Positions 22,044 through 33,372 of a DNA stretch of 64,000 nt are shown here, one piece after another. Position numbers and translations under genes: made by a program. Under the pieces are notes generated by a model. It saw nothing but the letters and a program-made list of their open reading frames with translations, was not told where the DNA came from and made no database searches. This stretch comes from an uncultured Actinomycetes bacterium. GTDB taxonomy: Bacteria; Actinomycetota; UBA4738; HRBIN12. The stretch covers positions 1,443,377-1,507,376 of the forward strand of contig CAVPJX010000001.1 in the NCBI GenBank assembly GCA_963705545.1. The letters are read 5' to 3'. Numbering within the stretch: the stretch's first letter is position 1; each line of letters starts with the position of its first letter.

Positions 22044-23942
22044 GTGATCGTCGCCTCGTGCGGCTCGGTCGGCACGCCACGAGCCGCCGATGCCCCCGAT
22101 CGCGCCGCGGTCCAGGCGTTCGTGCGGGTGAACCAGGTCGGCTACGACATGGACGCGCCGCAGCGCGCCTACCTCCTCGCCCGCGCCGACGAGGCCGATG
22201 CATCGTTCGTCGTGACGAACGATGCAGGCGCCTCCGTCCAGCAGGGCGTGGTCGGGGACGACCTGGGCGCGTGGAGCCGGCGGTTCCCACACGTGTACGC
22301 GATCGACCTCGCGCTCGACGAGCCCGGCACCTACACGATCCGCGTCGACGCCGCGACGGCGGCCGCCTCGCCGCCGTTCGCCGTCGGGGATCCGGCGGCG
22401 CTGTACGCGCCGCTCCTGGCGAACGCGCTGCGGTTCTACGGCGCCCAGCGGGACGGGCCGGACGTGATCGGGTCGATCCTTCAGCGCCGGCCTGCCCACC
22501 TGCACGATCGCAACGCCCGCGTCTACCGACATGCCCACTACGCTCCCGACTACACGATCCGTGATCCGGTCCGGGTGCCTGGGACCGGACGCGTGGACGT
22601 CTCCGGCGGCTGGTTCGATGCCGGCGACTACATCAAGGGTGTCCAGACCGAGAGCTACACGGCCGCGATGCTCCTCGTGGCGCGGCGCGACTTCCCGGAG
22701 TTGGTCGGGCCCGGGACCGCCGCCGACTTCACGGACGAGCTCCGCTTCGAGCTCGAGTGGCTCTTGCGGATGTGGGACGACCGCACCGGCACGCTGCTGT
22801 ACCAGGTGGGGTTCGGCGACGGCAGCGAGCGCTACGCGGGCGACCACGATCTCTGGCGGCTCCCGGAGGTCGACGATCACTTCCGTCCGGGCGATCCGCG
22901 GTACCGGTTCATCCGCCATCGTCCGGCGTTCCGGGCCGGACCCCCGGGCTCGCCGGTCAGCCCGAACCTCGCCGGACGCCTGTCGGCCGCCTTCGGACTC
23001 TGCTCGCAGATCTTCCGCGCGACCGACGCCACGCTCGCGGACCGATGCCTGCGGTCGGGTCAGCGCCTGTTCGACCTTGCCGACACCGACCCCGGGCGCC
23101 TCACCACCTTCTCCCCGTTCGACTACTACCCGGAGACCGAGTGGCATTCGGACCTCGAGCTCGGCGCCGTGGAGCTCGCGCTCGCCTCGGGTGCAGGGGA
23201 CCTCCCCTCCGGCCTCGCGCACCCGGGTCCCACGTACTACCTGACGCGCGCGGCGCGCTGGGCGGAAGCGTACGTCCACGGCGACGAGCTTGGCGACACG
23301 CTGAACCTCTACGACGTGAGCGCGCTCGCGCATGCCGAGCTCGTGCGCGCGATCGACGCCGCGGAGGATCCGTCGGGCCTCGCGATCGGTCGCGAGGCGC
23401 TGCTCGACGACATCGATCGACAGCTCCGGATGGCGTCCGAGCAGGCCTCCGCTGATCCGTTCGGCTGGGGATACCCCTACGCGGCGTACGACGGGACCTC
23501 CCACGGCCAGGGTCTCGCGATCACGGCGGGCCTGTACGCCGGGCTGTCGGGCGATCACACGTGGGACGCCTTCGGACGGACGCAGCTCGACGTGATCCTC
23601 GGCGCGAACGCATGGGGCACCACGTTCCTGGTCGGCGCCGGAACGACCTTCCCGAACTGCGTCCACCATCAGATCGCGAACCTGGTCGGGGCGCTGGACG
23701 GCTCGTCCCCGGTCGTGCTCGGCGCCGCGGTGAACGGGACGAACAGCAAGAGCCAGTTCCGCTGGCTCGGCCTGCCGTCGGAGGCGAACCGATGCCCCGG
23801 GGATCGCTCGGATCCGTTCGCGCGCTTCAACGGGATGCGGGCGCGCTGGTGGGACGACGCGCGGTCGTGGCCGACGGCGGAGCCGGCGATCGACTTCGTG
23901 GCGACGACGCCGCTCGCGTTCGCGCTGACGATGAGCGGCTAG
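22044..23942 (+). CDS. Glycoside hydrolase family 9 with N-terminal Ig-like domain, probable lipoprotein
   Basis: VRVNQVGY, DVSGGWFDAGDYIK (catalytic Asp), YQVG, HHQ, and WWDD..SW...EPAID (catalytic Glu). The true start may be ATG at 21992 with a 1-nt insertion. Confidence 0.88.
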   Translation: MIVASCGSVGTPRAADAPDRAAVQAFVRVNQVGYDMDAPQRAYLLARADEADASFVVTNDAGASVQQGVVGDDLGAWSRRFPHVYAIDLALDEPGTYTIRVDAATAAASPPFAVGDPAALYAPLLANALRFYGAQRDGPDVIGSILQRRPAHLHDRNARVYRHAHYAPDYTIRDPVRVPGTGRVDVSGGWFDAGDYIKGVQTESYTAAMLLVARRDFPELVGPGTAADFTDELRFELEWLLRMWDDRTGTLLYQVGFGDGSERYAGDHDLWRLPEVDDHFRPGDPRYRFIRHRPAFRAGPPGSPVSPNLAGRLSAAFGLCSQIFRATDATLADRCLRSGQRLFDLADTDPGRLTTFSPFDYYPETEWHSDLELGAVELALASGAGDLPSGLAHPGPTYYLTRAARWAEAYVHGDELGDTLNLYDVSALAHAELVRAIDAAEDPSGLAIGREALLDDIDRQLRMASEQASADPFGWGYPYAAYDGTSHGQGLAITAGLYAGLSGDHTWDAFGRTQLDVILGANAWGTTFLVGAGTTFPNCVHHQIANLVGALDGSSPVVLGAAVNGTNSKSQFRWLGLPSEANRCPGDRSDPFARFNGMRARWWDDARSWPTAEPAIDFVATTPLAFALTMSG

Positions 23943-24001: not shown

Positions 24002-24892
24002 CTAGGACGCCGTGTTCCCCTCGGCCAACTCGCTCAGCGGACGTCCGGCGGCGCGGTAAGCCTGGACGATCCCGTGCCGCCATGCCCCCGTGGCCTCGAC
24101 CTGGTTGAAGGTGAACACGTGGAACCCGGCGATCGCGTATCCCGGGTTCGCGACGAAGGGCTCGATCCGGTTGACGAAGCCATCGGGTCGGTACCCGCCA
24201 CGACGCATCAGGCGGGCGACCAGACCTCCGTACTTGCTGACGTACTTCACGGATGGACCGACACCAACCCGGAGCGATACCTCGATCAGCCTCCGACGAT
24301 TGACCGCGCCGGCGATCCCTAGGTGGATCGGCAGGTGGATGCCCCGGGCGCGGATCGTCGCGATCCATCGGGCGACCGCGCCCGGGTCGAAGCAGATCTG
24401 GGTCGCGAGGTGCGTGGCGAGTGGAGCCTTGAGATCCAAGGCCTCCTGCAACGCAACCTCCTCGATCAACGGGTGGCCCTCCGGATAGCCGGCGATCCCG
24501 ATCTCCTTGGGGACCGGGCCCTCGGCGTGGATCGCCTCCAGCAGCTCGAGTGCGGTGCCGTACGCGCCACCGGCGCGATGCCCGTCACCACCCACCACGA
24601 ACAGATCCGAGATGCCCGCGGCCGCGAGTCGGCCGAGGATCGACCGCAGGTGCTCCCGGCTCTGGACCGTTCGTGCGGACACGTGGGGAACGACACGATA
24701 GCCCCCGTTCGCGAGTCGCTCCGCGAGCTCGACGGTTCGGTCGGGACCTTTCGCCGGCGAGCAGGTGACCGTGAGGACCGTCCCCGAGGGCAGGAACCGT
24801 TCGACCTGTTCGACGACCCCGGACATCGGGATCACCTCGAAGCGGCTCGCTTCCAGGAGCGAGGCCAGATCGCGGGGGGCCGACGACGTCAC
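24002..24892 (-). CDS. metF: Methylenetetrahydrofolate reductase (short MetF-type)
   Basis: VPHVSAR, FVVGGD, IGIAGYPEGHP, TQICFD and GFHVFTFNQ motifs; GTGA overlap with the upstream demethylase gene. Confidence 0.88.
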   Translation of the reverse strand: MTSSAPRDLASLLEASRFEVIPMSGVVEQVERFLPSGTVLTVTCSPAKGPDRTVELAERLANGGYRVVPHVSARTVQSREHLRSILGRLAAAGISDLFVVGGDGHRAGGAYGTALELLEAIHAEGPVPKEIGIAGYPEGHPLIEEVALQEALDLKAPLATHLATQICFDPGAVARWIATIRARGIHLPIHLGIAGAVNRRRLIEVSLRVGVGPSVKYVSKYGGLVARLMRRGGYRPDGFVNRIEPFVANPGYAIAGFHVFTFNQVEATGAWRHGIVQAYRAAGRPLSELAEGNTAS

Positions 24893-26064
24893 GACTTCGG
24901 GATCTCCTTCTTCGGATCCCAGTGCGGCATCTCGACCACGTTTGCCTCCACCGCACCCGAGATCGGCGTCTCCACGGTGAGCGAGGTGCCGAGCTTCGCG
25001 AACTCGATCGGCAGCATCGCGAACCCGATGTTCTTCTCCAGGCGCGGCGAGAAGCAGGCCGAGGTCACCCGCCCTACGGTCCGACCGTCCACCGAGATGG
25101 GGAAGACGTCGATCATCTCGTTGTCGATGTACGAGCCGACCGGTTCCCCGCCGATATCGACGCCGACGAGCTTCTGGCTCACGCCCTCGTCGCGGATCCG
25201 TTTCAGCGCGGCTTTGCCGATGAAGTCGGCTTCCTGGTCGAGATCCACCATCCAGGTGTAGTGGTAGCCGACCTCGTACGGGTTGTTCTCGTACCACATG
25301 TCCGCCCCGAAGGCGAGGATGCCCCCCTCGATCCGGCGGATATGGCAAGGCCCGATCACACGCAGGTCGACGGGCTTGCCGGCCTCGAGCACCGCGTTCC
25401 ATAGCTTGACGCCGTTCGCGCTCGCTTCGTGCAGGTAGATCTCGTACCCGACCTCACCCGTGTAGCCCGTCCGTGAGATGACGACGTTCATCCCGCCGAT
25501 CGTGGTCTGCATCAGACCGTAGTACGGGATGTCCAGCACGGCATCGCCGACCAGGTTCGTCAGGACCTTCTTCGCGTTAGGGCCCTGGATCTGCAGTGGG
25601 GCCACATCGATCTCCTGCACCGTGACGTTCATCTTCATGGCATGGGCGATGCCGAGTGCATACAGGTTCACGTCGGAATCGGCGAGGGACAGCCAGAACT
25701 CGTCCTCCGCCACGCGCAGCAGGACCGGGTCGTTCAGGATCCCACCGTCGGGGGCCGTGATGAACACGTACTTCGCCTGATCCACCGCGCACTTGTGCAG
25801 GTCTCGCGGCACGATCATGTTCGTGAGGTCGAAGGCGTCGGGGCCCTTGATCTGGATCTGCTTCTCCACGCCCACGTCCCAGAGCGTGACGTTCTCGACG
25901 AGCGCCCGATACTCACCTACCGGATCACCGTAGTGGCGTGGATGGAACGTGTGGTTGTAGACGCTGTACCGGTGGACCCCGTGCTGGCGCGACGCGTAGA
26001 AGTACGGGGACTTGCGGATCCGGGTGTAGAGCAGGATCCCGGGGTCGGTGATCACCTCAGGCAA
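24889..26064 (-). CDS. GcvT-superfamily folate-dependent demethylase, DmdA-like
   Basis: RIRKSPYF...YSVYNH, WDVGVEKQ, GPDA, PRD, GGILNDP, WLSLADSD, QIQGP, RTGYTGEVGYEIY and RIEGG motifs; TTG start after GAGGAGG; no gcvH/gcvP nearby. Confidence 0.85.
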   Translation of the reverse strand: MPEVITDPGILLYTRIRKSPYFYASRQHGVHRYSVYNHTFHPRHYGDPVGEYRALVENVTLWDVGVEKQIQIKGPDAFDLTNMIVPRDLHKCAVDQAKYVFITAPDGGILNDPVLLRVAEDEFWLSLADSDVNLYALGIAHAMKMNVTVQEIDVAPLQIQGPNAKKVLTNLVGDAVLDIPYYGLMQTTIGGMNVVISRTGYTGEVGYEIYLHEASANGVKLWNAVLEAGKPVDLRVIGPCHIRRIEGGILAFGADMWYENNPYEVGYHYTWMVDLDQEADFIGKAALKRIRDEGVSQKLVGVDIGGEPVGSYIDNEMIDVFPISVDGRTVGRVTSACFSPRLEKNIGFAMLPIEFAKLGTSLTVETPISGAVEANVVEMPHWDPKKEIPKS

Positions 26065-26845
26065 GGGAACGCCTCCTCTCGTGGTAGCCGAGACGGCGCG
26101 AGATCGCCATCGCCGCCTCCATGGTCGCCCGCGCGACGCGCGGGATCTCGATCGAACGGAGTCGGAACGCTGGCCCCGAGACGCTCACCGCGGCGATCGC
26201 CACGCCGTCGGCCCGGCGGATCGGCGCCGCCACGGCGTTCAGGCCTTCCTCCAGCTCCTCCAGCGTCTGTGCGTACCCCTTCGCGAGCGCCTCGACCAGC
26301 TGCCGCCGCAGGTCCTCGGGATCGGTCACCGTCCAGGGCGTCCGTCGCTCGAAGGGGCCGGCGAGCAGGCTCTCACGGTCGCTGTCGGCGAGGCACGCCA
26401 GCAAGACCTTCCCCGAAGCCGAGCAATGCAGCGGCGTCCGCCGCCCGACCCAGTTCACCGACACGATCGCATCGCTGCTGGAGATCTGGTCGACGTACAC
26501 GACATGGTCGCGGTCGATGACCCCTACCGTCACCGTCTCCCCGGTGCGCTCGGCGAGCTCTTCGAGGATCGGCCTCGCGTGACGGACCAGGTCCACCCCC
26601 GCGAACGCGGCTCCCGCCAGATACATCAGGCCCAGGCCTAGCCGGAACTTCTCCGTCGACGGGTTCCGCTCGACCAAGCCGTGCTCGGCGAGGGTCGCGA
26701 GCAGGCGGGACGCGGTCGCCTTGTGCACCTCGAGGCGACGCCCGAGTTCGCTGACGCCCAGCTCCCCCTCCTCGGCGATGATCTCGAGGATCCGCACAGC
26801 GCGCGAGACGGATTGCACCGCAGCTCCACCGGTTTGGTTGCTCAT
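26057..26845 (-). CDS. IclR family transcriptional regulator
   Basis: VQSVSRAVRILE, HTH LGVSELGRRLEVHKATASRLLATL, PLHCSASGKVLLA, GYA...EE...G...VAAPI. Confidence 0.95.
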   Translation of the reverse strand: MSNQTGGAAVQSVSRAVRILEIIAEEGELGVSELGRRLEVHKATASRLLATLAEHGLVERNPSTEKFRLGLGLMYLAGAAFAGVDLVRHARPILEELAERTGETVTVGVIDRDHVVYVDQISSSDAIVSVNWVGRRTPLHCSASGKVLLACLADSDRESLLAGPFERRTPWTVTDPEDLRRQLVEALAKGYAQTLEELEEGLNAVAAPIRRADGVAIAAVSVSGPAFRLRSIEIPRVARATMEAAMAISRRLGYHERRRSLA

Positions 26846-26856
26846 CCCGCACCTCA

Positions 26857-26873
26857 GATGCACCATCCGCAAC
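26857..26873 (-). promoter_or_regulatory. Putative IclR operator, copy 1
   Basis: GTTGCGGATGGTGCATC on the minus strand just downstream of the -10; 14/17 identical to the palindrome at 31606-31622. Confidence 0.6.
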
Positions 26874-26880
26874 ACCACCA

Positions 26881-26910
26881 AGGATAGGGAAGCCCGGCCG
26901 CCTCGGTCAA
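26881..26910 (-). promoter_or_regulatory. Sigma70-type promoter of the iclR-demethylase-metF operon
   Basis: TTGACC (26910-26905), 18-nt spacer, TATCCT (26886-26881). Confidence 0.65.
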
Positions 26911-26931
26911 GCGGGGAGCGGCGAGGGTCGG

Positions 26932-27039
26932 TCAGTCAGGCTCGTCGGTCAGCTCGGCGGCGAGCAGATCCATCAGCAGGCCGTCGTGCCATCGATCGTC
27001 GGGGCCACGCTCGTAGGCGCGCAGCACGCCGACCGGCCG
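26932..27039 (-). pseudogene. C-terminal remnant of a GNAT acetyltransferase (AAC(6')-like/RimL type)
   Basis: Frame reads RPVGVLRAYERGPDDRWHDGLLMDLLAAELTDEPD*; no N-terminus present. Confidence 0.7.
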
Positions 27040-27304
27040 GCCGCGACCCGCCGCGTCGCGGCCGCCCGGTCGAAGGCGGAGCGCGACGCCCAGCCGGGTG
27101 CCGCGGCGTTCGCCGCGTCGATCGCGCGCGGCGCGTCGGCCCGGGTGCCCTCGGCGACCGACCCGATCACCTCGCCGCGTCGATCACGAGTGCCCGTCGC
27201 GGCCGACGCGCCTCCGCGCCGGTCGACGGGCGAGCGCGTCGGGATCGCCCCGGCCTCCGACGGCCCCAGGTCCCGCCGATGAACAGCTCCACGTGCTCGG
27301 CCAC
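27040..27304 (-). pseudogene. N-terminal remnant of an aldehyde dehydrogenase (at the position expected for betB)
   Basis: GGAGGTG RBS, MAEHVELFIGGTW, then in another frame GEVIGSVAEGTRADA.RAIDAANAAAPGWASRSAFDRAA; truncated and frameshifted. Confidence 0.75.
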
Positions 27305-27327
27305 CGCGCTCACCTCCGACGCGCGCG

Positions 27328-27352
27328 GGGGCGGCCCCCGGAGGGCCGCCCC
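27328..27352 (-). terminator. GC-rich hairpin after the betaine SBP gene (terminator or mRNA stabiliser)
   Basis: GGGGCGGCCC-CCGGA-GGGCCGCCCC, 10-bp stem; no U-tract. Confidence 0.5.
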
Positions 27353-27384
27353 GTCGCGGCGTGCGTCCGATCCGGCTCCGGCGC

Positions 27385-28425
27385 CTACGCGGCCAGGCCG
27401 GCGTCGACCCACGGCTGCCACGTGGACTGGTTCGCGTCGACCCAGCTCTGTGCGGCTGCCTCGGGCTCCACCTTGTCGTCTCCCTGCATCTGGACCGTGA
27501 CCGCGTTCTGGTCGTCGTTCGACCAGTTCATCGCGGACAGGAACGCGAACGCTGCGGGCGCCTTCGTCTGCAGGTCCGCGTTGAGCGCCTTGTAGAGGTC
27601 GTCCTCCGGGTACGCGCAGGCGTACGCCGACGCGTCGTTCAGCGCGGCGTCCTCGCACTCGGGCGTGACGTCCGGGAGCTGGACCATCGTCAGGTCGTAC
27701 TGGGCGTGCGCCCAGTGCGGCGTCCAGAAGTAGAAGAGGAACGGCGACTGGTCCTGGTACGCCGTGTCGAGGGCCGTGAGCTGCGCGTTCTCCGACCCCG
27801 CGTACACGACCTTCAGGTCCAGGCCCAGGTTGTCGGCGATCGGCTGGTCGAAGGTGACGAAGCTCGGGTCGCCGTCCAGGAGCTGGCCCTGGTCGCCGGT
27901 CTCCGCCGTGGCGAACTCCGACTCGTTGCCCTTCAACCCTTCCCAGGTGGCGAGGTCCGGGTTCGCGTCGACCATGTAGGTGGGGACCCACCAACCGATC
28001 TGGCCGATCGCACCCAGCTGGCCGCCGTCGACGACCCCGTTGTTCCCCTCGATGTACTTCTTGTAGTCCTTGGCGTGACCGGAAGGCCACACCTCGAGGG
28101 TCGCGTCGAGGTCCCCCGTCGACAACGCTGGGAACTGCGCGAACTCGTCGATCTCGACCAGCTCCACGGTGTATCCCAGCTGCTGCTCGAGCAGGACCGC
28201 GGCCACGTTCGCGTTCGCCGCCGACCCGAGCCACGGGTTCACGGCGATCCGGATCGTGACGTCGCTGTTGTCCGGGACCGCCGGTCCGCTCTCCCCGGTC
28301 GCGCCGCCAGTCGCGGCACCGCCGGTCTCGCCGCCGTCGCCGCTGTCGACGTCGCTGCAAGCAGCGGCGACCACCGCGAACATCGCCACGCTCGCGACGA
28401 TCATCCACCTGCGCGGCTTCCTCAT
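27385..28425 (-). CDS. Glycine betaine/choline-type ABC transporter substrate-binding lipoprotein (OpuAC/ProX family)
   Basis: Lipobox VAAAC; NPW, LEVWP, GWWVPTY and FYFWTPHW aromatic-box-type motifs. Confidence 0.88.
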   Translation of the reverse strand: MRKPRRWMIVASVAMFAVVAAACSDVDSGDGGETGGAATGGATGESGPAVPDNSDVTIRIAVNPWLGSAANANVAAVLLEQQLGYTVELVEIDEFAQFPALSTGDLDATLEVWPSGHAKDYKKYIEGNNGVVDGGQLGAIGQIGWWVPTYMVDANPDLATWEGLKGNESEFATAETGDQGQLLDGDPSFVTFDQPIADNLGLDLKVVYAGSENAQLTALDTAYQDQSPFLFYFWTPHWAHAQYDLTMVQLPDVTPECEDAALNDASAYACAYPEDDLYKALNADLQTKAPAAFAFLSAMNWSNDDQNAVTVQMQGDDKVEPEAAAQSWVDANQSTWQPWVDAGLAA

Positions 28426-30509
28426 CCGTCCTCCTTCCCCTCCGAACCGTTATCGCCGGGACGCCCCACGAGCGCCCGGGCACGGGTCCACCACATCCCG
28501 CCTGTTCCTACGGGCCCGCGCATGCTGCGGGATGCCATCCCGAACGCCTGCGTGATCCGATCGATCACGATCGCCAGCAGCAGGATGCAGATCCCCCCGA
28601 TCATCCCGCGGGCGATCTCGTCGTGGGCCAGACCCTTGATCACCTCGAGGCCGAGGCCGCCTCCGCCGATCAGGCCCGCGATGATCACGACGGACAGCAC
28701 CATCATGATCGTCTGGTTGATCCCCAGCAGGATCGAGGGTCGGGCGAGCGGCAGCTGGACCCGACGGAGCAGCTGACCGCGCGTCGCACCGTAGGCGAGC
28801 GAGGCCTCGACGGTGTCGTGGGGCACCTGTCGGATGCCGAGGTCGGTGAGCCGGACGCACGGAGGAAGGGCGTAGATCATCGCCGCGATCACGCCGGGGA
28901 CGCGGCCGACGTTGAACAGCGCGATCACCGGCACGAGGTAGACGAACGCCGGCATCGTCTGCATCGCGTCGAGGGCAGGCTTCGAGAAGCGCTGGAACGA
29001 GTCGTGTTGCGCGGCGAGGATCCCGAGCGGGATCGCAACGACGATGGCGAGGACGACGGCGACGATCACCTGGCTGAGGGTGTCCATCGCGATGTCCCAC
29101 ATCCCCAGGAATCCGATCGCAGCGAGGCACGAGAAGGCCATGAGGGCGAGCCGGAACCTCCGCGACGCGACCCAAGCGAGCGCGGCCGCGCCGCCGCATA
29201 CCATCCACCAGGGAACCCCCAGGAGCAGATCGCGGATCGGATCGAGGGCGTACATCGTGATCGCGTCCGAGACCGCGCGCGTGAAGTCCCCGAAGGTACT
29301 GGTGATCCAGTCGATCGCCGCGTTCGCGGGATCGGCGACCGAGATCGTCCAGGCGTCGGGCCACGCCTGCTGGCGGAGGACCTGCCGTCCCACGATCACC
29401 GCGAGCGTCGTGGCTAGCGCGGCGGCGATCCAGACCGAGCGCCTCGAGAACGTCCGACCGAAGACCGAGATGCCGGTCTCTCCCCGCCGGTCCCGGGAGC
29501 GTTGGCTCCAGGCGTAGCTGACCCGATCCAAGACGATCGCCATCGCGACGATGGCCAGACCCGCGTTCAGGGCCTCGCCCACGTCGAGCGTCTGGAGGGC
29601 GTTGTAGACCTCTCGACCGAGACCTTGGAAGCCCACCACGGCGGCGATCACGACCATGCCGAGCGCCATCATGATCGTCTGATTCACGCCGAGCATGATC
29701 GAGGGCTTCGCGAGCGGGAGCTGGACCTGCCGCAGGATCTGCCGCTCGGTCGAGCCGTACGCCGAGGCGACCTCGAGCGTGGTGGCCGGGACGCCGCGCA
29801 CCCCCAGGCTCGTGAGACGGACCGCCGGCGGGAGCGCGAAGATCACCGTGGCGATCAACGCCGTGGTCGTGCCGATGCTGAAGAGCAGGACGAGCGGGAT
29901 CAGGTACGAGAACGCGGGGATCGTCTGCATCCCGTCGAGGATCGGACGCAGGATCCGCTCGACGCGATCGTGTCGCCCGGCCCAGATCCCCAGTGGGACC
30001 CCGATCAGGAGCGCGACCGCGACGGCGACCAGCACCAGCGCGAGGGTGGCGATGCTCTGCTCCCACAGGCCGAGCATGCCCATGACCGCGAACCCCGCGC
30101 CCGCGACGATCGCCATCCGCCATCCGGCGATCACTCCGGCGATGCAGACGGCGGCCGTGAGCACACCGAGCCACGTCATCCGGTTCAGGAGCAGCACCAG
30201 GTTCTCGAACAGGGCGTTGACCCCGTTCTTGAGCGGCGTCAGCACGTTGACGAAGATCCAGCTCGTGTCGTCGTTCTCGAGGACCCAGTTCTCGGCCGAC
30301 TCGAACCAGTGACCGATGTCGATCACCCACTTCTCGGGGAACCCCGCCGTGAGCTGCAGGCCGATCAGGGTCACGACGACCGAGATCCCCAGCCAGAACA
30401 GCCGACGACCCCACGGGGAGTCGGCGGGCTCGTGGTGGATCGGTCCCCGAGGGGCCGGGATCTCCTCGCCGCCGACCTCTACCTCGGGGGGGGCGTCGAG
30501 CATCGCCAT
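28422..30509 (-). CDS. ProW/OpuAB-type permease with two fused permease domains
   Basis: 695 aa; LD.MQT.PAF.YL.P, PP.VRLT.LG, VQLPLA.PSI.LG.NQTIMM and DR each occur twice. Confidence 0.92.
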   Translation of the reverse strand: MAMLDAPPEVEVGGEEIPAPRGPIHHEPADSPWGRRLFWLGISVVVTLIGLQLTAGFPEKWVIDIGHWFESAENWVLENDDTSWIFVNVLTPLKNGVNALFENLVLLLNRMTWLGVLTAAVCIAGVIAGWRMAIVAGAGFAVMGMLGLWEQSIATLALVLVAVAVALLIGVPLGIWAGRHDRVERILRPILDGMQTIPAFSYLIPLVLLFSIGTTTALIATVIFALPPAVRLTSLGVRGVPATTLEVASAYGSTERQILRQVQLPLAKPSIMLGVNQTIMMALGMVVIAAVVGFQGLGREVYNALQTLDVGEALNAGLAIVAMAIVLDRVSYAWSQRSRDRRGETGISVFGRTFSRRSVWIAAALATTLAVIVGRQVLRQQAWPDAWTISVADPANAAIDWITSTFGDFTRAVSDAITMYALDPIRDLLLGVPWWMVCGGAAALAWVASRRFRLALMAFSCLAAIGFLGMWDIAMDTLSQVIVAVVLAIVVAIPLGILAAQHDSFQRFSKPALDAMQTMPAFVYLVPVIALFNVGRVPGVIAAMIYALPPCVRLTDLGIRQVPHDTVEASLAYGATRGQLLRRVQLPLARPSILLGINQTIMMVLSVVIIAGLIGGGGLGLEVIKGLAHDEIARGMIGGICILLLAIVIDRITQAFGMASRSMRGPVGTGGMWWTRARALVGRPGDNGSEGKEDG

Positions 30510-31534
30510 CAGTCGACGTCCTCCAGCATCGCCGTCAGCACGGCGGCGCGATCGACGACGCCGACGACCCGGTCGCCGTCGAGCACGCGCAGCGGCAGGT
30601 CGGAGTGGACCACGAGCGGGAGCAGCTCCTGGATGATGGTGTCGGCGGAGATGTCGCTCCCGTACGTGCGTCCGTCCGCGCCCACGGGCTCCATGATCGT
30701 CCGCGCGGTCAACACGTGAGCCCGGGGAACATCGCGGGTGAAGTCGGCCACGTAGTCGTCCGCCGGATGAGCCACGACGTCTTCCGGCGTCCCCACCTGG
30801 ACGAAGGCGCCGTCCTTCATGATCGCGATCCGGTTCCCGAGCTTGAGTGCCTCCATCAGATCGTGCGTGATGAAGATCATCGTCTTCTTCACCTCGCGCT
30901 GCAGCCGCAGCACCTGGTCCTGCATGTCACGTCGGATCAAGGGATCGAGCGCGCTGAACGGCTCGTCGAACAGCATGATCTCGGGGTCCGTCGCGAGCGC
31001 GCGCGCGAGTCCCACCCGCTGCTGCATCCCGCCGGAGAGCTCGTCGGGGTACGCGTTCCCCCACCCGCCGAGACCGACCACGTCCAGCACCTCCTCGGCC
31101 TTGCCCAGACGCTCGGCCTTCTCGACCCCGCGCACCTCGAGACCGTACGCCGCGTTCTCGACGATCCGCCGGTGCGGGAAGAGCCCGAAGTGCTGGAAGA
31201 CCATGCTGATCTTCCGGCGACGAAGGTCGCGGAGCCGGTCGTCGTCGAGCTGCACGACGTCGTCGCCGTCGATCAGCACCTGCCCGGCCGTCGGATCGTG
31301 GAGGCGATTGATCATCCGTACCAAGGTCGATTTCCCAGAGCCGGAGAGCCCCATCACGACGAACACCTCGCCCTCCGCCACGTCGAACGAGACGTCGCGG
31401 ACGGCGGCCACGCATCCGGTCTTCTCGAGGAGCTCCTGGCGGGAGAGCTGCGCGTCCGCAGAGCCGACGATCCGCTCGGCCTTCGGGCCGTACACCTTCC
31501 AGACGTTGCGGCACGAGACGGTGGCGTCGTCCAC
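30509..31534 (-). CDS. Glycine betaine/choline ABC transporter ATPase (ProV/OpuAA) with C-terminal CBS-like region
   Basis: [42 protein letters not shown] and FITHDL motifs; alternative start ATG at 31570. Confidence 0.93.
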
Positions 31535-31605
31535 GAACCCCCCTCGATCGACGGCAGCGCGGCCTTCCATCTTGTGCCCCCGACGACGGGCAGCGCAAGG
31601 TGGCG

Positions 31606-31622
31606 GTTGCGGGTGGAGCAAC
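31606..31622. promoter_or_regulatory. Putative IclR operator, copy 2, in the divergent ABC/betA intergenic region
   Basis: GTTGC-GGGTGGA-GCAAC with perfect 5-bp arms. Confidence 0.6.
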
Positions 31623-31665
31623 GAGCGACTCGCGCGGGGTCCGCCGGGTCGTGCAGGATAGCCCC

Positions 31666-33372
31666 ATGACCGCCTACGACTTCGTGATCGTAGGGGGCGG
31701 CTCGGCCGGCAGCGCCCTCGCCAACCGCCTCTCAGCCGATCCCGGCAACCGGGTGCTGGTCCTCGAGGCGGGACGGCCGGACTACCTGTTCGACGTCTTC
31801 ATCCACATGCCGGCCGCGCTCACGTTCCCGATCGGGAGCCGGTTCTACGACTGGAAGTACGAATCGGAGCCCGAGCCGTTCATGAACGGCCGCCGCATCT
31901 ACCACGCGCGCGGCAAGGTCCTCGGGGGCTCGAGCAGCATCAACGGCATGATCTTCCAGCGCGGCAACCCGCTCGACTACGAGCGCTGGGCCGCCGATCC
32001 CGGCATGGAGACGTGGGACTACGCCCACTGTCTGCCGTACTTCAAGCGGATGGAAACGTGCCTCGCGGCCGAACGCGACGACGCGAGGCGCGGGCACTCG
32101 GGACCGCTCGTCCTCGAGCGCGGGCCGGCGACGAACCCGCTGTTCGGTGCGTTCTTCGAAGCCGTTCAGCAGGCCGGCTACTCGCTCACCGAGGACGTCA
32201 ACGGGTATCGACAGGAGGGGTTCGCACCGTTCGATCGCAACGTGCATCGCGGTCGCCGGTTGTCGGCGGCCCGCGCGTACCTGCATCCGGTCATGGGCCG
32301 ACCGAACCTAGAGGTGCAGACGCGGGCGTTCGTGACCCGTGTCCTGTTCGACGGCGCCCGGGCGATCGGCGTCGAGTACACGCGGGGCCGCGGGGAGGCG
32401 CGTTCGGTGCGCGCCGGCGAGGTGATCCTGTGTGGCGGCGCGATCAACACCCCGCAGACCCTGCAGGTCTCTGGCGTCGGCAACGCCGCGGAGCTGCGGG
32501 CGCTCGGCGTCGAGATCGTGCACGACCTGCCGGGCGTCGGCGAGCACCTACAGGATCACCTCGAGGTCTACGTCCAGTACGCCTGCAAGCAGCCGGTGTC
32601 GATGGCGCCCTACCTCCAGTGGCGTTACCGGCCGTGGGTGGGGTTCCAGTGGTTGTTCTTCCGGCGCGGGCCGGGCGCGACGAACCACTTCGAGGGCGGT
32701 GGGTTCGCACGTAGCAACGATGACGTCGCCTACCCGAACCTGATGTTCCACTTCCTGCCGATCGCGGTGCGTTACGACGGCTCCGCCCCGGCCGGCGACC
32801 ACGGGTACCAGGTCCACATCGGCCCGATGTACTCGGACGCGCGCGGCTCGATCAAGATCAAGAGCGCCGATCCGACCGTGCATCCGGCCCTGCGCTTCAA
32901 CTACCTGTCGACCGAGCAGGACCGTCGCGAGTGGGTCGAGGCGATCCACGTGGCCCGCGACATCCTGAGCCAGCCCGCGATGGACCCGTTCAACGCGGGC
33001 GAGATCTCGCCCGGCCCGGCGGTCGCGACCGACGAGGAGATCCTCGAGTGGGTCGCGCGCGACGGCGAGACGGCGCTGCATCCGTCGTGCACGGCCCGCA
33101 TGGGCGTCGACGAGCTGTCGGTCACCGACCCGCTGACGATGAAGGTGCACGGCCTCGAGGGTCTCCGCGTCGTCGACGCGTCCGTGATGCCCTACGTGAC
33201 GAACGGCAACATCTACGCGCCCGTGATGATGGTGGCCGAGAAGGCCGCCGACCTGATCCTCGGGAACACCCCGCTCGCGCCCGAGCACACCGACTTCTAC
33301 CGGCACGAGCGGCCGAAGCCCCGGAGGAAGCGCGCAGCGCCGACGAGCGATCCTGCCGGCGATCCGGCCTAG
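31666..33372 (+). CDS. betA: Choline dehydrogenase
   Basis: [64 protein letters not shown] and AEKAAD motifs. Confidence 0.92.

Follow-up and report, generated by a model that had tools for sequence, protein, structure and literature searches.

The DNA studied here is a window of 64 kb (C1:1443377-1507376, the whole stretch that was analysed; G+C ~70%) on contig C1 of the 3.04-Mb, 96.5% complete genome (G000) of an uncultured soil Actinomycetes bacterium. Between positions 24002 and 33372 of the window, the open reading frame (ORF) listing together with the Pfam and NCBIfam scans revealed seven genes and one gene remnant. Three of these genes form an operon, which encodes an IclR regulator, a GcvT-family protein similar to the dimethylsulfoniopropionate (DMSP) demethylase DmdA and a protein similar to methylenetetrahydrofolate reductase (MTHFR, MetF), and next to them lie the genes of a betaine/choline-type importer and of choline dehydrogenase. 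The central enzyme of this operon may demethylate glycine betaine by direct methyl transfer to tetrahydrofolate (THF). The features of the locus, numbered in the window, are as follows.

24002..24892, minus strand: MTHFR-like gene, 296 amino acids (aa); PF02219 at 40.6 bits against a cut-off of 24
24889..26064, minus strand: DmdA-like GcvT-family gene, 391 aa; PF01571 at 142 bits, and PF08669
26057..26845, minus strand: iclR, the first gene of the operon; PF01614 at 156 bits and PF09339 at 56 bits
26848..26873, minus strand: direct repeat GTTGCG-N14-GGTGCG, a candidate operator, located after the promoter-like hexamers and before the iclR ATG
26881..26910, minus strand: promoter-like hexamers TTGACC (26910-26905) and TATCCT (26886-26881) with a spacing of 18 nt
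~27069..27298, minus strand: 5' remnant of an aldehyde dehydrogenase (ALDH) gene, found by tblastn, at the betB-like position of orthologous loci
27385..28425, minus strand: OpuAC-type substrate-binding protein; PF04069 at 175 bits
28422..30509, minus strand: fused double permease of a betaine/choline ABC importer; two BPD_transp_1 domains, TIGR03416 at 496 bits against 363
30509..31621, minus strand: ProV/OpuAA-type ATPase, start uncertain; TIGR01186 at 368 bits against 326.6
31600..33372, plus strand: choline dehydrogenase gene betA, start uncertain; TIGR01810 at 842.2 bits against 732.1

On the minus strand the order of transcription is ATPase, permease, binding protein, ALDH remnant, promoter-like region, iclR, DmdA-like gene and MTHFR-like gene, and betA on the plus strand is divergent from the importer genes. 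The iclR gene starts with an ATG at 26845, and its ORF is open as far as 26881. Its stop overlaps the TTG start of the DmdA-like gene by 8 nt, with the ribosome-binding site GAGAGGAGG 7 nt upstream of this TTG, and the stop of the DmdA-like gene overlaps the GTG start of the MTHFR-like gene by 4 nt (GTGA), which places the start of the latter at 24892. The permease and binding-protein genes meet in an ATGA, and the overlap between the ATPase and permease genes is 1 nt. Neither gcvH nor gcvP was found within the 64-kb window; they are located at C1:246861 and C1:252610, respectively, and the bona fide gcvT of the genome lies at C1:504433-505548 (394.7 bits with NF001567 and 320.3 bits with TIGR00528), all three being hundreds of kilobases from the DmdA-like gene. 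An earlier reading of this DNA, made from the letters and a list of translated ORFs and called here the sequence-only reading, had named iclR, a GcvT-like gene and a metF-like gene in translational coupling, beside an importer, an ALDH remnant and betA and without gcvH or gcvP. All of these genes are in their named places, and both the coupling and the lack of gcvH and gcvP in the window are as described there.

The best NCBIfam model for the DmdA-like protein was that of DmdA (NF009133), at 327 bits and thus under the curated 410-bit equivalog cut-off, and the representative of the orthologues' 90%-identity cluster reached 329.5 bits with the same model. The GcvT models were also matched below their cut-offs (NF001567, 180.5 bits against 300; TIGR00528, 157.7 bits against 235.85). 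The closest protein in the PDB was 3tfh, the DmdA of Pelagibacter ubique (208 bits), followed by 1woo, the GcvT of Thermotoga maritima (150 bits), and trimethylamine N-oxide (TMAO) demethylase (141 bits); the match to LigM was remote (39.5 bits) and confined to the N-terminal half. The AlphaFold2 model, built on a 37-row alignment, had a mean predicted local distance difference test (pLDDT) score of 93.9 and contains the predicted three-domain DmdA/GcvT fold. It superposed best on 3tfh (TMq 0.91, root mean square deviation 1.5 A), the next being GcvT (TMq 0.84). The DmdA segments R.RKSP.F, Y.VYNH, WDV..E.Q, GG..NDP and W.SLAD.D, and the RTGYTGE in place of the RSGWSKQ of DmdA, which the sequence-only reading had pointed out, are all visible in the alignment with 3tfh. 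The form RTGYTGE-[VI]G is found in the DmdA-like protein and in eight orthologues, and the motif R[ST]G[WYF]S..-GG has no match in the DmdA-like protein; seven rows that pass the DmdA model have S at position 202 and GG (TG in one row). A two-residue insert specific to the orthologue clade gives rise to an aromatic-rich loop, GYHYxWMVD, and it is tempting to speculate that this loop forms a cation-pi cage. A Trp (W171) is called key for DMSP binding in DmdA in the accessible part of one study (PMC7487153). The W of RSGWSKQ was dropped as a diagnostic of DmdA, the mapping of W171 to it being inferred and the position being W, Y or F among the DmdA-pass rows.

The phylogenetic tree comprised 75 rows, i.e., 62 proteins (all those of full length in the set of the 150 best 50%-identity representatives), the paralogues of the genome and four orthologues. 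In this tree the label DmdA means that a sequence passes the NCBI model (10 of the 62 rows), not that it has been characterised by experiment. The orthologues formed their own clade with 100% SH-aLRT support, nested in a 14-row clade at 97%, and the ten DmdA-pass rows grouped away from it; all of them belong to a 69-row DmdA-like assemblage separate from the GcvT rows. The approximately unbiased (AU) test rejected a joint clade of orthologues and DmdA-pass rows with a log-likelihood difference of 123.7 and p of 4.8e-5, for a subset of 40 rows under LG+G4, a simpler model, and with the groups defined once the first tree was known. Nesting within GcvT or DmdA had been named beforehand as the outcome that would speak against the sequence-only reading, and what the scores and the tree gave instead was a separate clade below the family cut-offs. 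As judged from sequence and predicted fold, the protein is closest to DmdA rather than to GcvT and stands outside the DmdA clade. Residue D112 is nearly invariant across all groups, so that a test of the catalytic Asp for telling methyl-forming from methylene-forming members was dropped, and no sequence feature testable here separated methyl-THF from methylene-THF chemistry among the aligned groups. The 120 best database clusters were 77-88% identical to the protein, and those with a name were called GcvT, aminomethyltransferase or, once, DmdA.

The MTHFR-like protein matched the bacterial MetF model TIGR00676 at 58 bits against a cut-off of 294. In a comparison with PDB entries, which is not a tree, its nearest solved structure was 7xg9 (S6MTHFR) at 117 bits, against 35.5 bits for the next, the canonical MTHFRs. 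As described in the available part of the S6MTHFR paper (PMC11868366), this enzyme carries out the oxidation of CH3-THF to CH2-THF, with hardly any reaction with NADH, and defines the type-4 MTHFRs, the partners of the THF-dependent demethylases LigM, DesA, CmuAB and Dmt, and its residues Leu48-Pro49, Arg78 and Pro268-Phe269 are tied to blocked NADH binding and CH3-THF oxidation. The window protein keeps Pro49 and Phe269 and has Ser for Leu48, Thr for Arg78 and Thr for Pro268. Because Leu48, Arg78 and Pro268 are not kept, we do not file it as type-4; it is a distinct subgroup related to type-4, which may work in the CH3-THF-oxidising direction. The motifs VT[CA]SP and TFNQ are common to the linked MetF-like homologues (26 aligned, both blocks readable in 24), and the MetF-like genes beside orthologues thus again encode SP and TF at these places. 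Two further MTHFR domains are present in the genome, a canonical one on contig C1 and a homocysteine-methyltransferase/MTHFR fusion on contig C5, so the copy in the operon is an extra, dedicated paralogue. An MTHFR would be of use only if methyl-THF, not methylene-THF, is formed, and the argument for methyl-THF as the product is built on the DmdA-like nature of the enzyme and on the coupled S6MTHFR-like gene. The argument that the sequence-only reading had built on metF has gained strength, since the nearest solved relative oxidises methyl-THF and works with THF-dependent demethylases.

The conservation of this gene neighbourhood was studied in the best 80 of 96 relatives from species-representative genomes, at 76-89% identity; these are close orthologues, and the sister clades at ~50% identity lie outside the survey. 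Six loci were annotated with Pfam and NCBIfam, all 80 were scored by tblastn with the window proteins and the annotated neighbours, and 36 had at least 6 kb on both sides (long-flank loci). All 80 loci come from uncultured metagenome-assembled genomes, with Actinomycetota or Actinomycetes as the label of nearly all of them. One or more betaine-pathway genes were found in 36 of the 36 long-flank loci and in 74 of the 80 overall, the remaining six having short flanks. The linkage of orthologues to betaine genes, on which the sequence-only reading had staked its claim, is thus strong. The neighbours were distributed as follows, DMGDH standing for dimethylglycine dehydrogenase.

DMGDH-like gene (DAO-FAO_M-GCV_T fusion): 29/36 long-flank loci, 62/80 all loci
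Sarcosine oxidase alpha or gamma: 27/36 long-flank loci, 43/80 all loci
ALDH: 21/36 long-flank loci, 35/80 all loci
betA: 15/36 long-flank loci, 16/80 all loci
OpuA component: 13/36 long-flank loci, 17/80 all loci
MetF-like gene: 15/36 long-flank loci, 28/80 all loci

The DMGDH-like gene lay no more than 400 bp from the orthologue in 54 of the 80 loci, and the MetF-like gene was directly downstream of it in 18. Two gene orders were recognised. The iclR-first order consists of betA, divergent from the opuA genes, then ALDH, iclR, the orthologue, the MetF-like gene, the DMGDH-like gene and the electron transfer flavoprotein (ETF) genes (e.g., L029, L043 and L077), and the DMGDH-first order of the opuA genes, the DMGDH-like gene, the orthologue and the MetF-like gene, followed by sarcosine oxidase genes on the opposite strand (e.g., L052, L019 and L067). 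The linkage to betaine genes persists across both. Furthermore, 81 genomes of the class were drawn evenly, the host genome included, and the orthologue was present at 81% identity or more in 19 of them, which belong to eight genera and two families. All 19 also carry betA (in one case a contig-end fragment below the cut-off), on the same contig and within 12 kb in 18. Two of the 81 genomes (G032 and G059) are unpublished and neither is among the 19; G059 has a match at 65% identity.

On the basis of the gene context we give somewhat better than even chances to the view that the operon turns glycine betaine and THF into dimethylglycine and 5-methyl-THF, which is then oxidised by the MTHFR. What we infer here is which substrate is used, which product is formed and in which direction the MTHFR works, and the steps would be the following. 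Betaine would be supplied by the adjacent OpuA-type importer or by the oxidation of choline through BetA. The DmdA-like enzyme would transfer one N-methyl group directly to N5 of THF, giving dimethylglycine and 5-methyl-THF without O2, cobalamin or homocysteine, and the MTHFR-like enzyme would oxidise 5-methyl-THF to 5,10-methylene-THF, so regenerating the folate pool and feeding one-carbon oxidation. Dimethylglycine may then be converted to sarcosine and glycine by DAO-GcvT fusion dehydrogenases with ETF, which are encoded on C5 here and adjacently in relatives. Control of the operon would probably lie with IclR, acting at the GTTGCG repeat. The net first step would be thermodynamically reasonable, since it equals that of the corrinoid MtgB-MtgA route, for which betaine + THF -> dimethylglycine + methyl-THF is given in the available part of its description (PMC13080624). 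Three DAO-GCV_T fusion proteins are indeed encoded on contig C5, and one of them (C5:217994-221280, DMGDH type a, with ETF genes) is orthologous, at 73.5% identity, to the DMGDH-like gene located after the MetF-like gene in L043.

Among known systems, DmdA of P. ubique and Ruegeria pomeroyi is the best match in sequence and structure, with shared N-terminal and core motifs, and the chemistry of the window protein is presumed to be alike, i.e., a redox-neutral methyl transfer from an onium compound to N5 of THF (PMC5395565, as far as its accessible text goes). It differs from DmdA by an identity of only ~30-40%, a sub-cut-off score and another clade, by RTGYTGE-VG instead of RSGWSKQ-GG and the GYHYxWMVD insert, by a context of betaine/choline genes instead of DMSP genes, and by orthologue hosts that are uncultured Actinomycetota rather than marine Alphaproteobacteria. 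The operon logic, a GcvT-superfamily demethylase gene next to an MTHFR gene, is that of LigM/DesA and S6MTHFR. In the ligM-metF-ligH operon of Sphingobium lignivorans SYK-6, the THF-dependent demethylase makes CH3-THF and the adjoining S6MTHFR oxidises it, and the survey of type-4 MTHFRs, in the portion of that paper at hand, started from LigM, DesA, CmuAB and Dmt and not from DmdA-like proteins (PMC11868366). LigM itself is a remote match whose substrates are aryl methyl ethers. BHMT, the Rieske oxygenase GbcAB and the corrinoid system MtgB/MtgA occupy the same pathway position, from betaine to dimethylglycine, whereas the window protein is of an unrelated family and would use unrelated cofactors.

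GcvT-family paralogues beside opuA or metF have been noticed before in SAR11, where, in the available part of Sun et al. 2011 (PMC3160333), SAR11_1303 lies beside opuA and a monomeric sarcosine oxidase gene, with a proposed role in betaine metabolism, and the DmdA-like SAR11_1265 lies beside metF, with removal of the second DMSP methyl proposed. These proposed functions are speculative; the opuA and metF contexts are split over two genes there, and SAR11 also has BHMT. The two proteins were compared by description and are not in our tree. A direct THF-dependent glycine betaine demethylase was not found in the full texts searched, which leave most subscription journals outside their coverage; the papers found on "tetrahydrofolate methyltransferase" concern corrinoid systems, and a betaine-metabolism study of 2022 names BHMT and GbcAB in its accessible part (PMC9321204). 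The sequence-only reading had called the system undescribed, and this holds for the enzyme, of which we found none in print, but not for the general idea of a GcvT paralogue with opuA and metF, which had been raised for SAR11. The comparison suggests that the DmdA/LigM fold and presumed chemistry were known already and that the substrate, the pathway role, the host lineage and the MTHFR subtype are new.

The same chemistry might act on another substrate, such as DMSP, dimethylsulfonioacetate, proline betaine, a carnitine-derived betaine or choline, brought in by the OpuA-type importer. We regard this as unlikely, although the closest characterised enzyme is a sulfonium demethylase, the OpuAC-type binding proteins are broad, with the one in the window matching the ProX and choline models weakly, and the five DmdA-like paralogues of the genome imply several substrates in the family; a sulfonium analogue had already been raised in the sequence-only reading. 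The linked genes, however, are those of a choline-to-glycine route (betA, ALDH, DMGDH-like gene, sarcosine oxidase, ETF and a BetI-like regulator), and the DmdA-specific SKQ-GG motif is absent. In the six annotated loci we noticed neither a methylmercaptopropionate (MMPA)-CoA ligase nor any other gene of a DMSP pathway, though no family search for such genes was made, and none of the 80 loci, with their uncultured and nearly all actinobacterial hosts, is from a cultured marine DMSP degrader. An accessory role seems less probable still, in which the protein would be a T-protein-like folate binder, and no methyltransferase, that takes up, as 5,10-methylene-THF, the methylene or formaldehyde set free by an oxidative demethylase, be it a Rieske oxygenase, a DMGDH-like enzyme or a monomeric sarcosine oxidase. 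The DMGDH-like and SoxA proteins encoded nearby contain GCV_T domains themselves, the window operon holds no oxygenase and a FAD monooxygenase is near only 2 of the 80 orthologues, the translationally coupled MTHFR of the S6MTHFR kind would be left unexplained, and in both sequence and predicted fold DmdA is closer than any of the members that form methylene-THF. On the other side, the GCV_T domain plays exactly this role in DMGDH, sarcosine oxidase and TMAO demethylase, all of which are matched by the protein, RTGYTGE is a GcvT-type motif, two DmdA-like paralogues adjoin a Rieske oxygenase at C1:287536-291424, and methylene-THF-forming roles for such paralogues are suggested in the accessible text of Sun et al. 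2011 (PMC3160333). That the protein is simply an additional glycine cleavage T-protein or a genuine DMSP demethylase, with nothing new about it, is what the public names of its orthologues would say ("glycine cleavage system aminomethyltransferase T", "aminomethyltransferase" and once "DmdA"), but it is very improbable in view of scores below all curated cut-offs (GcvT 180/300 and 158/236, DmdA 327/410 bits), a bona fide GcvT of 395 bits elsewhere with gcvH and gcvP distant, and a separate clade whose union with the DmdA-pass clade is rejected by the AU test.

A number of points weigh against betaine demethylation by this operon as proposed above. The characterised DmdA enzymes reportedly do not use glycine betaine, and methyl transfer to N5 is less favourable from a trimethylammonium group than from a sulfonium. 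The support comes from gene context, sequence and predicted fold. Three of the five type-4 residues (Leu48, Arg78 and Pro268) are replaced in the MTHFR-like protein, a MetF-like gene stands beside only 28 of the 80 orthologues, and the model scores of the ALDHs in orthologous loci fail to single out betaine aldehyde. The linked loci come from related genomes, so that the linkage counts overstate the independent support. In the genome sample betA was also present in 32 of the 62 genomes without an orthologue; presence of the orthologue implies that of betA, and the converse does not hold. As to other betaine demethylases, the host genome has no match to the MttB/MtgB family and nothing above cut-off for GbcA (best 155 bits against 670) or BHMT (best 215 bits against 338, in a methionine-synthesis fusion protein), and none of the 81 sampled genomes passes the BHMT or the GbcA cut-off. 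Since the control genomes likewise gave no match at the thresholds used, this silence is weak evidence that excludes close equivalogs only. The genome search also detected three Rieske oxygenases of ~410 aa that are distantly GbcA-like (132-155 bits against 670), two of which gave 171 and 190 bits when scanned as ORFs. In addition, a PF02574 domain (157 bits) is encoded at C1:799492-802771 (L106), beside a gene like those of N-methyltryptophan oxidase and sarcosine oxidase, and the L106 protein is a possible alternative enzyme using betaine or another methyl donor.

Soils and plant residues contain glycine betaine and choline as some of their most abundant osmolytes and methyl carriers, and the first demethylation decides between their storage and their burning. 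If the proposal is true, a direct folate-dependent enzyme adds a cofactor-cheap, oxygen-independent betaine route and closes a gap in the pathway of a large, uncultured lineage of actinobacteria. It would also extend the pairing of a THF-dependent demethylase with a methyl-THF-oxidising MTHFR beyond the catabolism of lignin, chloromethane and dicamba. In the family search all 8000 of 8000 candidates were scored, and the 90%-identity clusters had up to 504 members; the proposal would correct widespread GcvT and DmdA annotations, dmdA-like matches serving as markers of DMSP cycling, and would change the meaning of many of these annotations outside the oceans. A broader view is that soil Actinomycetota have a fourth way of betaine demethylation, in which a DmdA-family enzyme transfers the methyl group to THF and a new subtype of methyl-THF-oxidising MTHFR follows, and that this enzyme is one of five radiated methyltransferases per 3-Mb genome, each serving a different methylated osmolyte; the chances for and against this view appear to us evenly balanced. 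The hypothesis involves two soluble proteins and is hence directly testable.

The sequence-only reading had spoken of a regulon. An operon with a candidate operator was seen, and a regulon as such was not borne out. The operator-like repeat, searched as GTTG[CT][GA]-N11-17-G[TG]TG[CT][GA], has a single match on both strands of the window, and in the 983 kb of loci overall the pattern matched 27 times. It was found just before iclR in all eight iclR-first loci with upstream DNA, and in L029, L040, L043, L050, L060, L061, L063 and L082 the repeat (GTTGCG-N13-15-GTTGCR) lies between a -10-like box and the iclR start. The iclR-first loci also have a TTGAC box and a TAG..T box in the same place as the promoter-like hexamers of the window. 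IclR regulators usually bind palindromes, and a direct repeat differs from that; among the loci compared no palindromic IclR operator was conserved, and the direct repeat was conserved instead. From its sequence and position, GTTGCG-N14-GGTGCG is a candidate IclR operator.

The importer is of the OpuA/ProU type, presumably for betaine or choline, with the binding protein, the ProW-type permease and the ProV-type ATPase each above family cut-offs; the fused permease also matches the ProW model at 457 bits against a cut-off of 439, and the binding protein is the component with weak matches to ProX and choline-binding models. BetA reached 871 bits with NF002550 against a cut-off of 605, the family match beginning at residue 27. 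The ALDH remnant corresponds to residues ~9-71 of the 482-486 aa ALDHs that stand at the same position in orthologous loci, with ~60% identity in two frames and an E-value of 1e-7 in a small tblastn search with the full-length ALDHs of L043 and L077 as queries. No intact orthologue of it was found in the host genome, where the best match was 38%. It was not possible to assign the ALDHs of orthologous loci as betaine aldehyde dehydrogenases, their score with that model (391 bits against a cut-off of 669) being one among many similar scores. Since the ALDH is a stub and the DMGDH-ETF module is on another contig, the window locus amounts to a rearranged and partly eroded ancestral cluster. Directly downstream of the MTHFR-like gene and convergent with it lies a GH9 cellulase-like gene with a CelD_N domain (22044-23942, plus strand), and it marks a rearrangement breakpoint because the DMGDH-like gene holds that position in relatives.

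Fourteen GCV_T-domain matches are present in the 3.04-Mb genome, and five of them are DmdA-like paralogues with 297-339 bits on NF009133, all below the cut-off; such paralogues were found in 67 of the 81 sampled genomes. The DmdA-like family has presumably radiated in this lineage onto different methylated substrates. At C1:287536-293275 (L101) two tandem DmdA-like paralogues lie beside a Rieske oxygenase with a distant likeness to GbcA (171 bits against 670) and an Amidohydro_3 protein; they form a demethylation module of another kind, which is relevant to the formaldehyde-capture explanation weighed above. At C2:415003-417015 (L107:17004-19016) a 670-aa ORF joins a DmdA-like GCV_T/GCV_T_C module to Methyltransf_11 (residues 448-540), an S-adenosylmethionine-dependent methyltransferase domain, and the 694-aa representative P0141, whose DmdA-like part is N-terminal, suggests that extended or fused forms occur elsewhere.

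The PF02574 (homocysteine S-methyltransferase) domain of L106 shares its ORF with an AI-2E transporter domain, the genome search reading through one TGA, and the protein gave 103-108 bits with the BHMT model. At C5:150000-165000 (L103) two DAO-GCV_T fusion dehydrogenase genes are each followed by a choline/ethanolamine-kinase-like gene, and an APC-family permease and weak metallophosphoesterase-like ORFs are found in the surroundings. Similar permease and phosphoesterase ORFs stand upstream of the orthologue in L009 and L043, and the neighbours in these three loci hint at phosphocholine or a related headgroup as the entry substrate.

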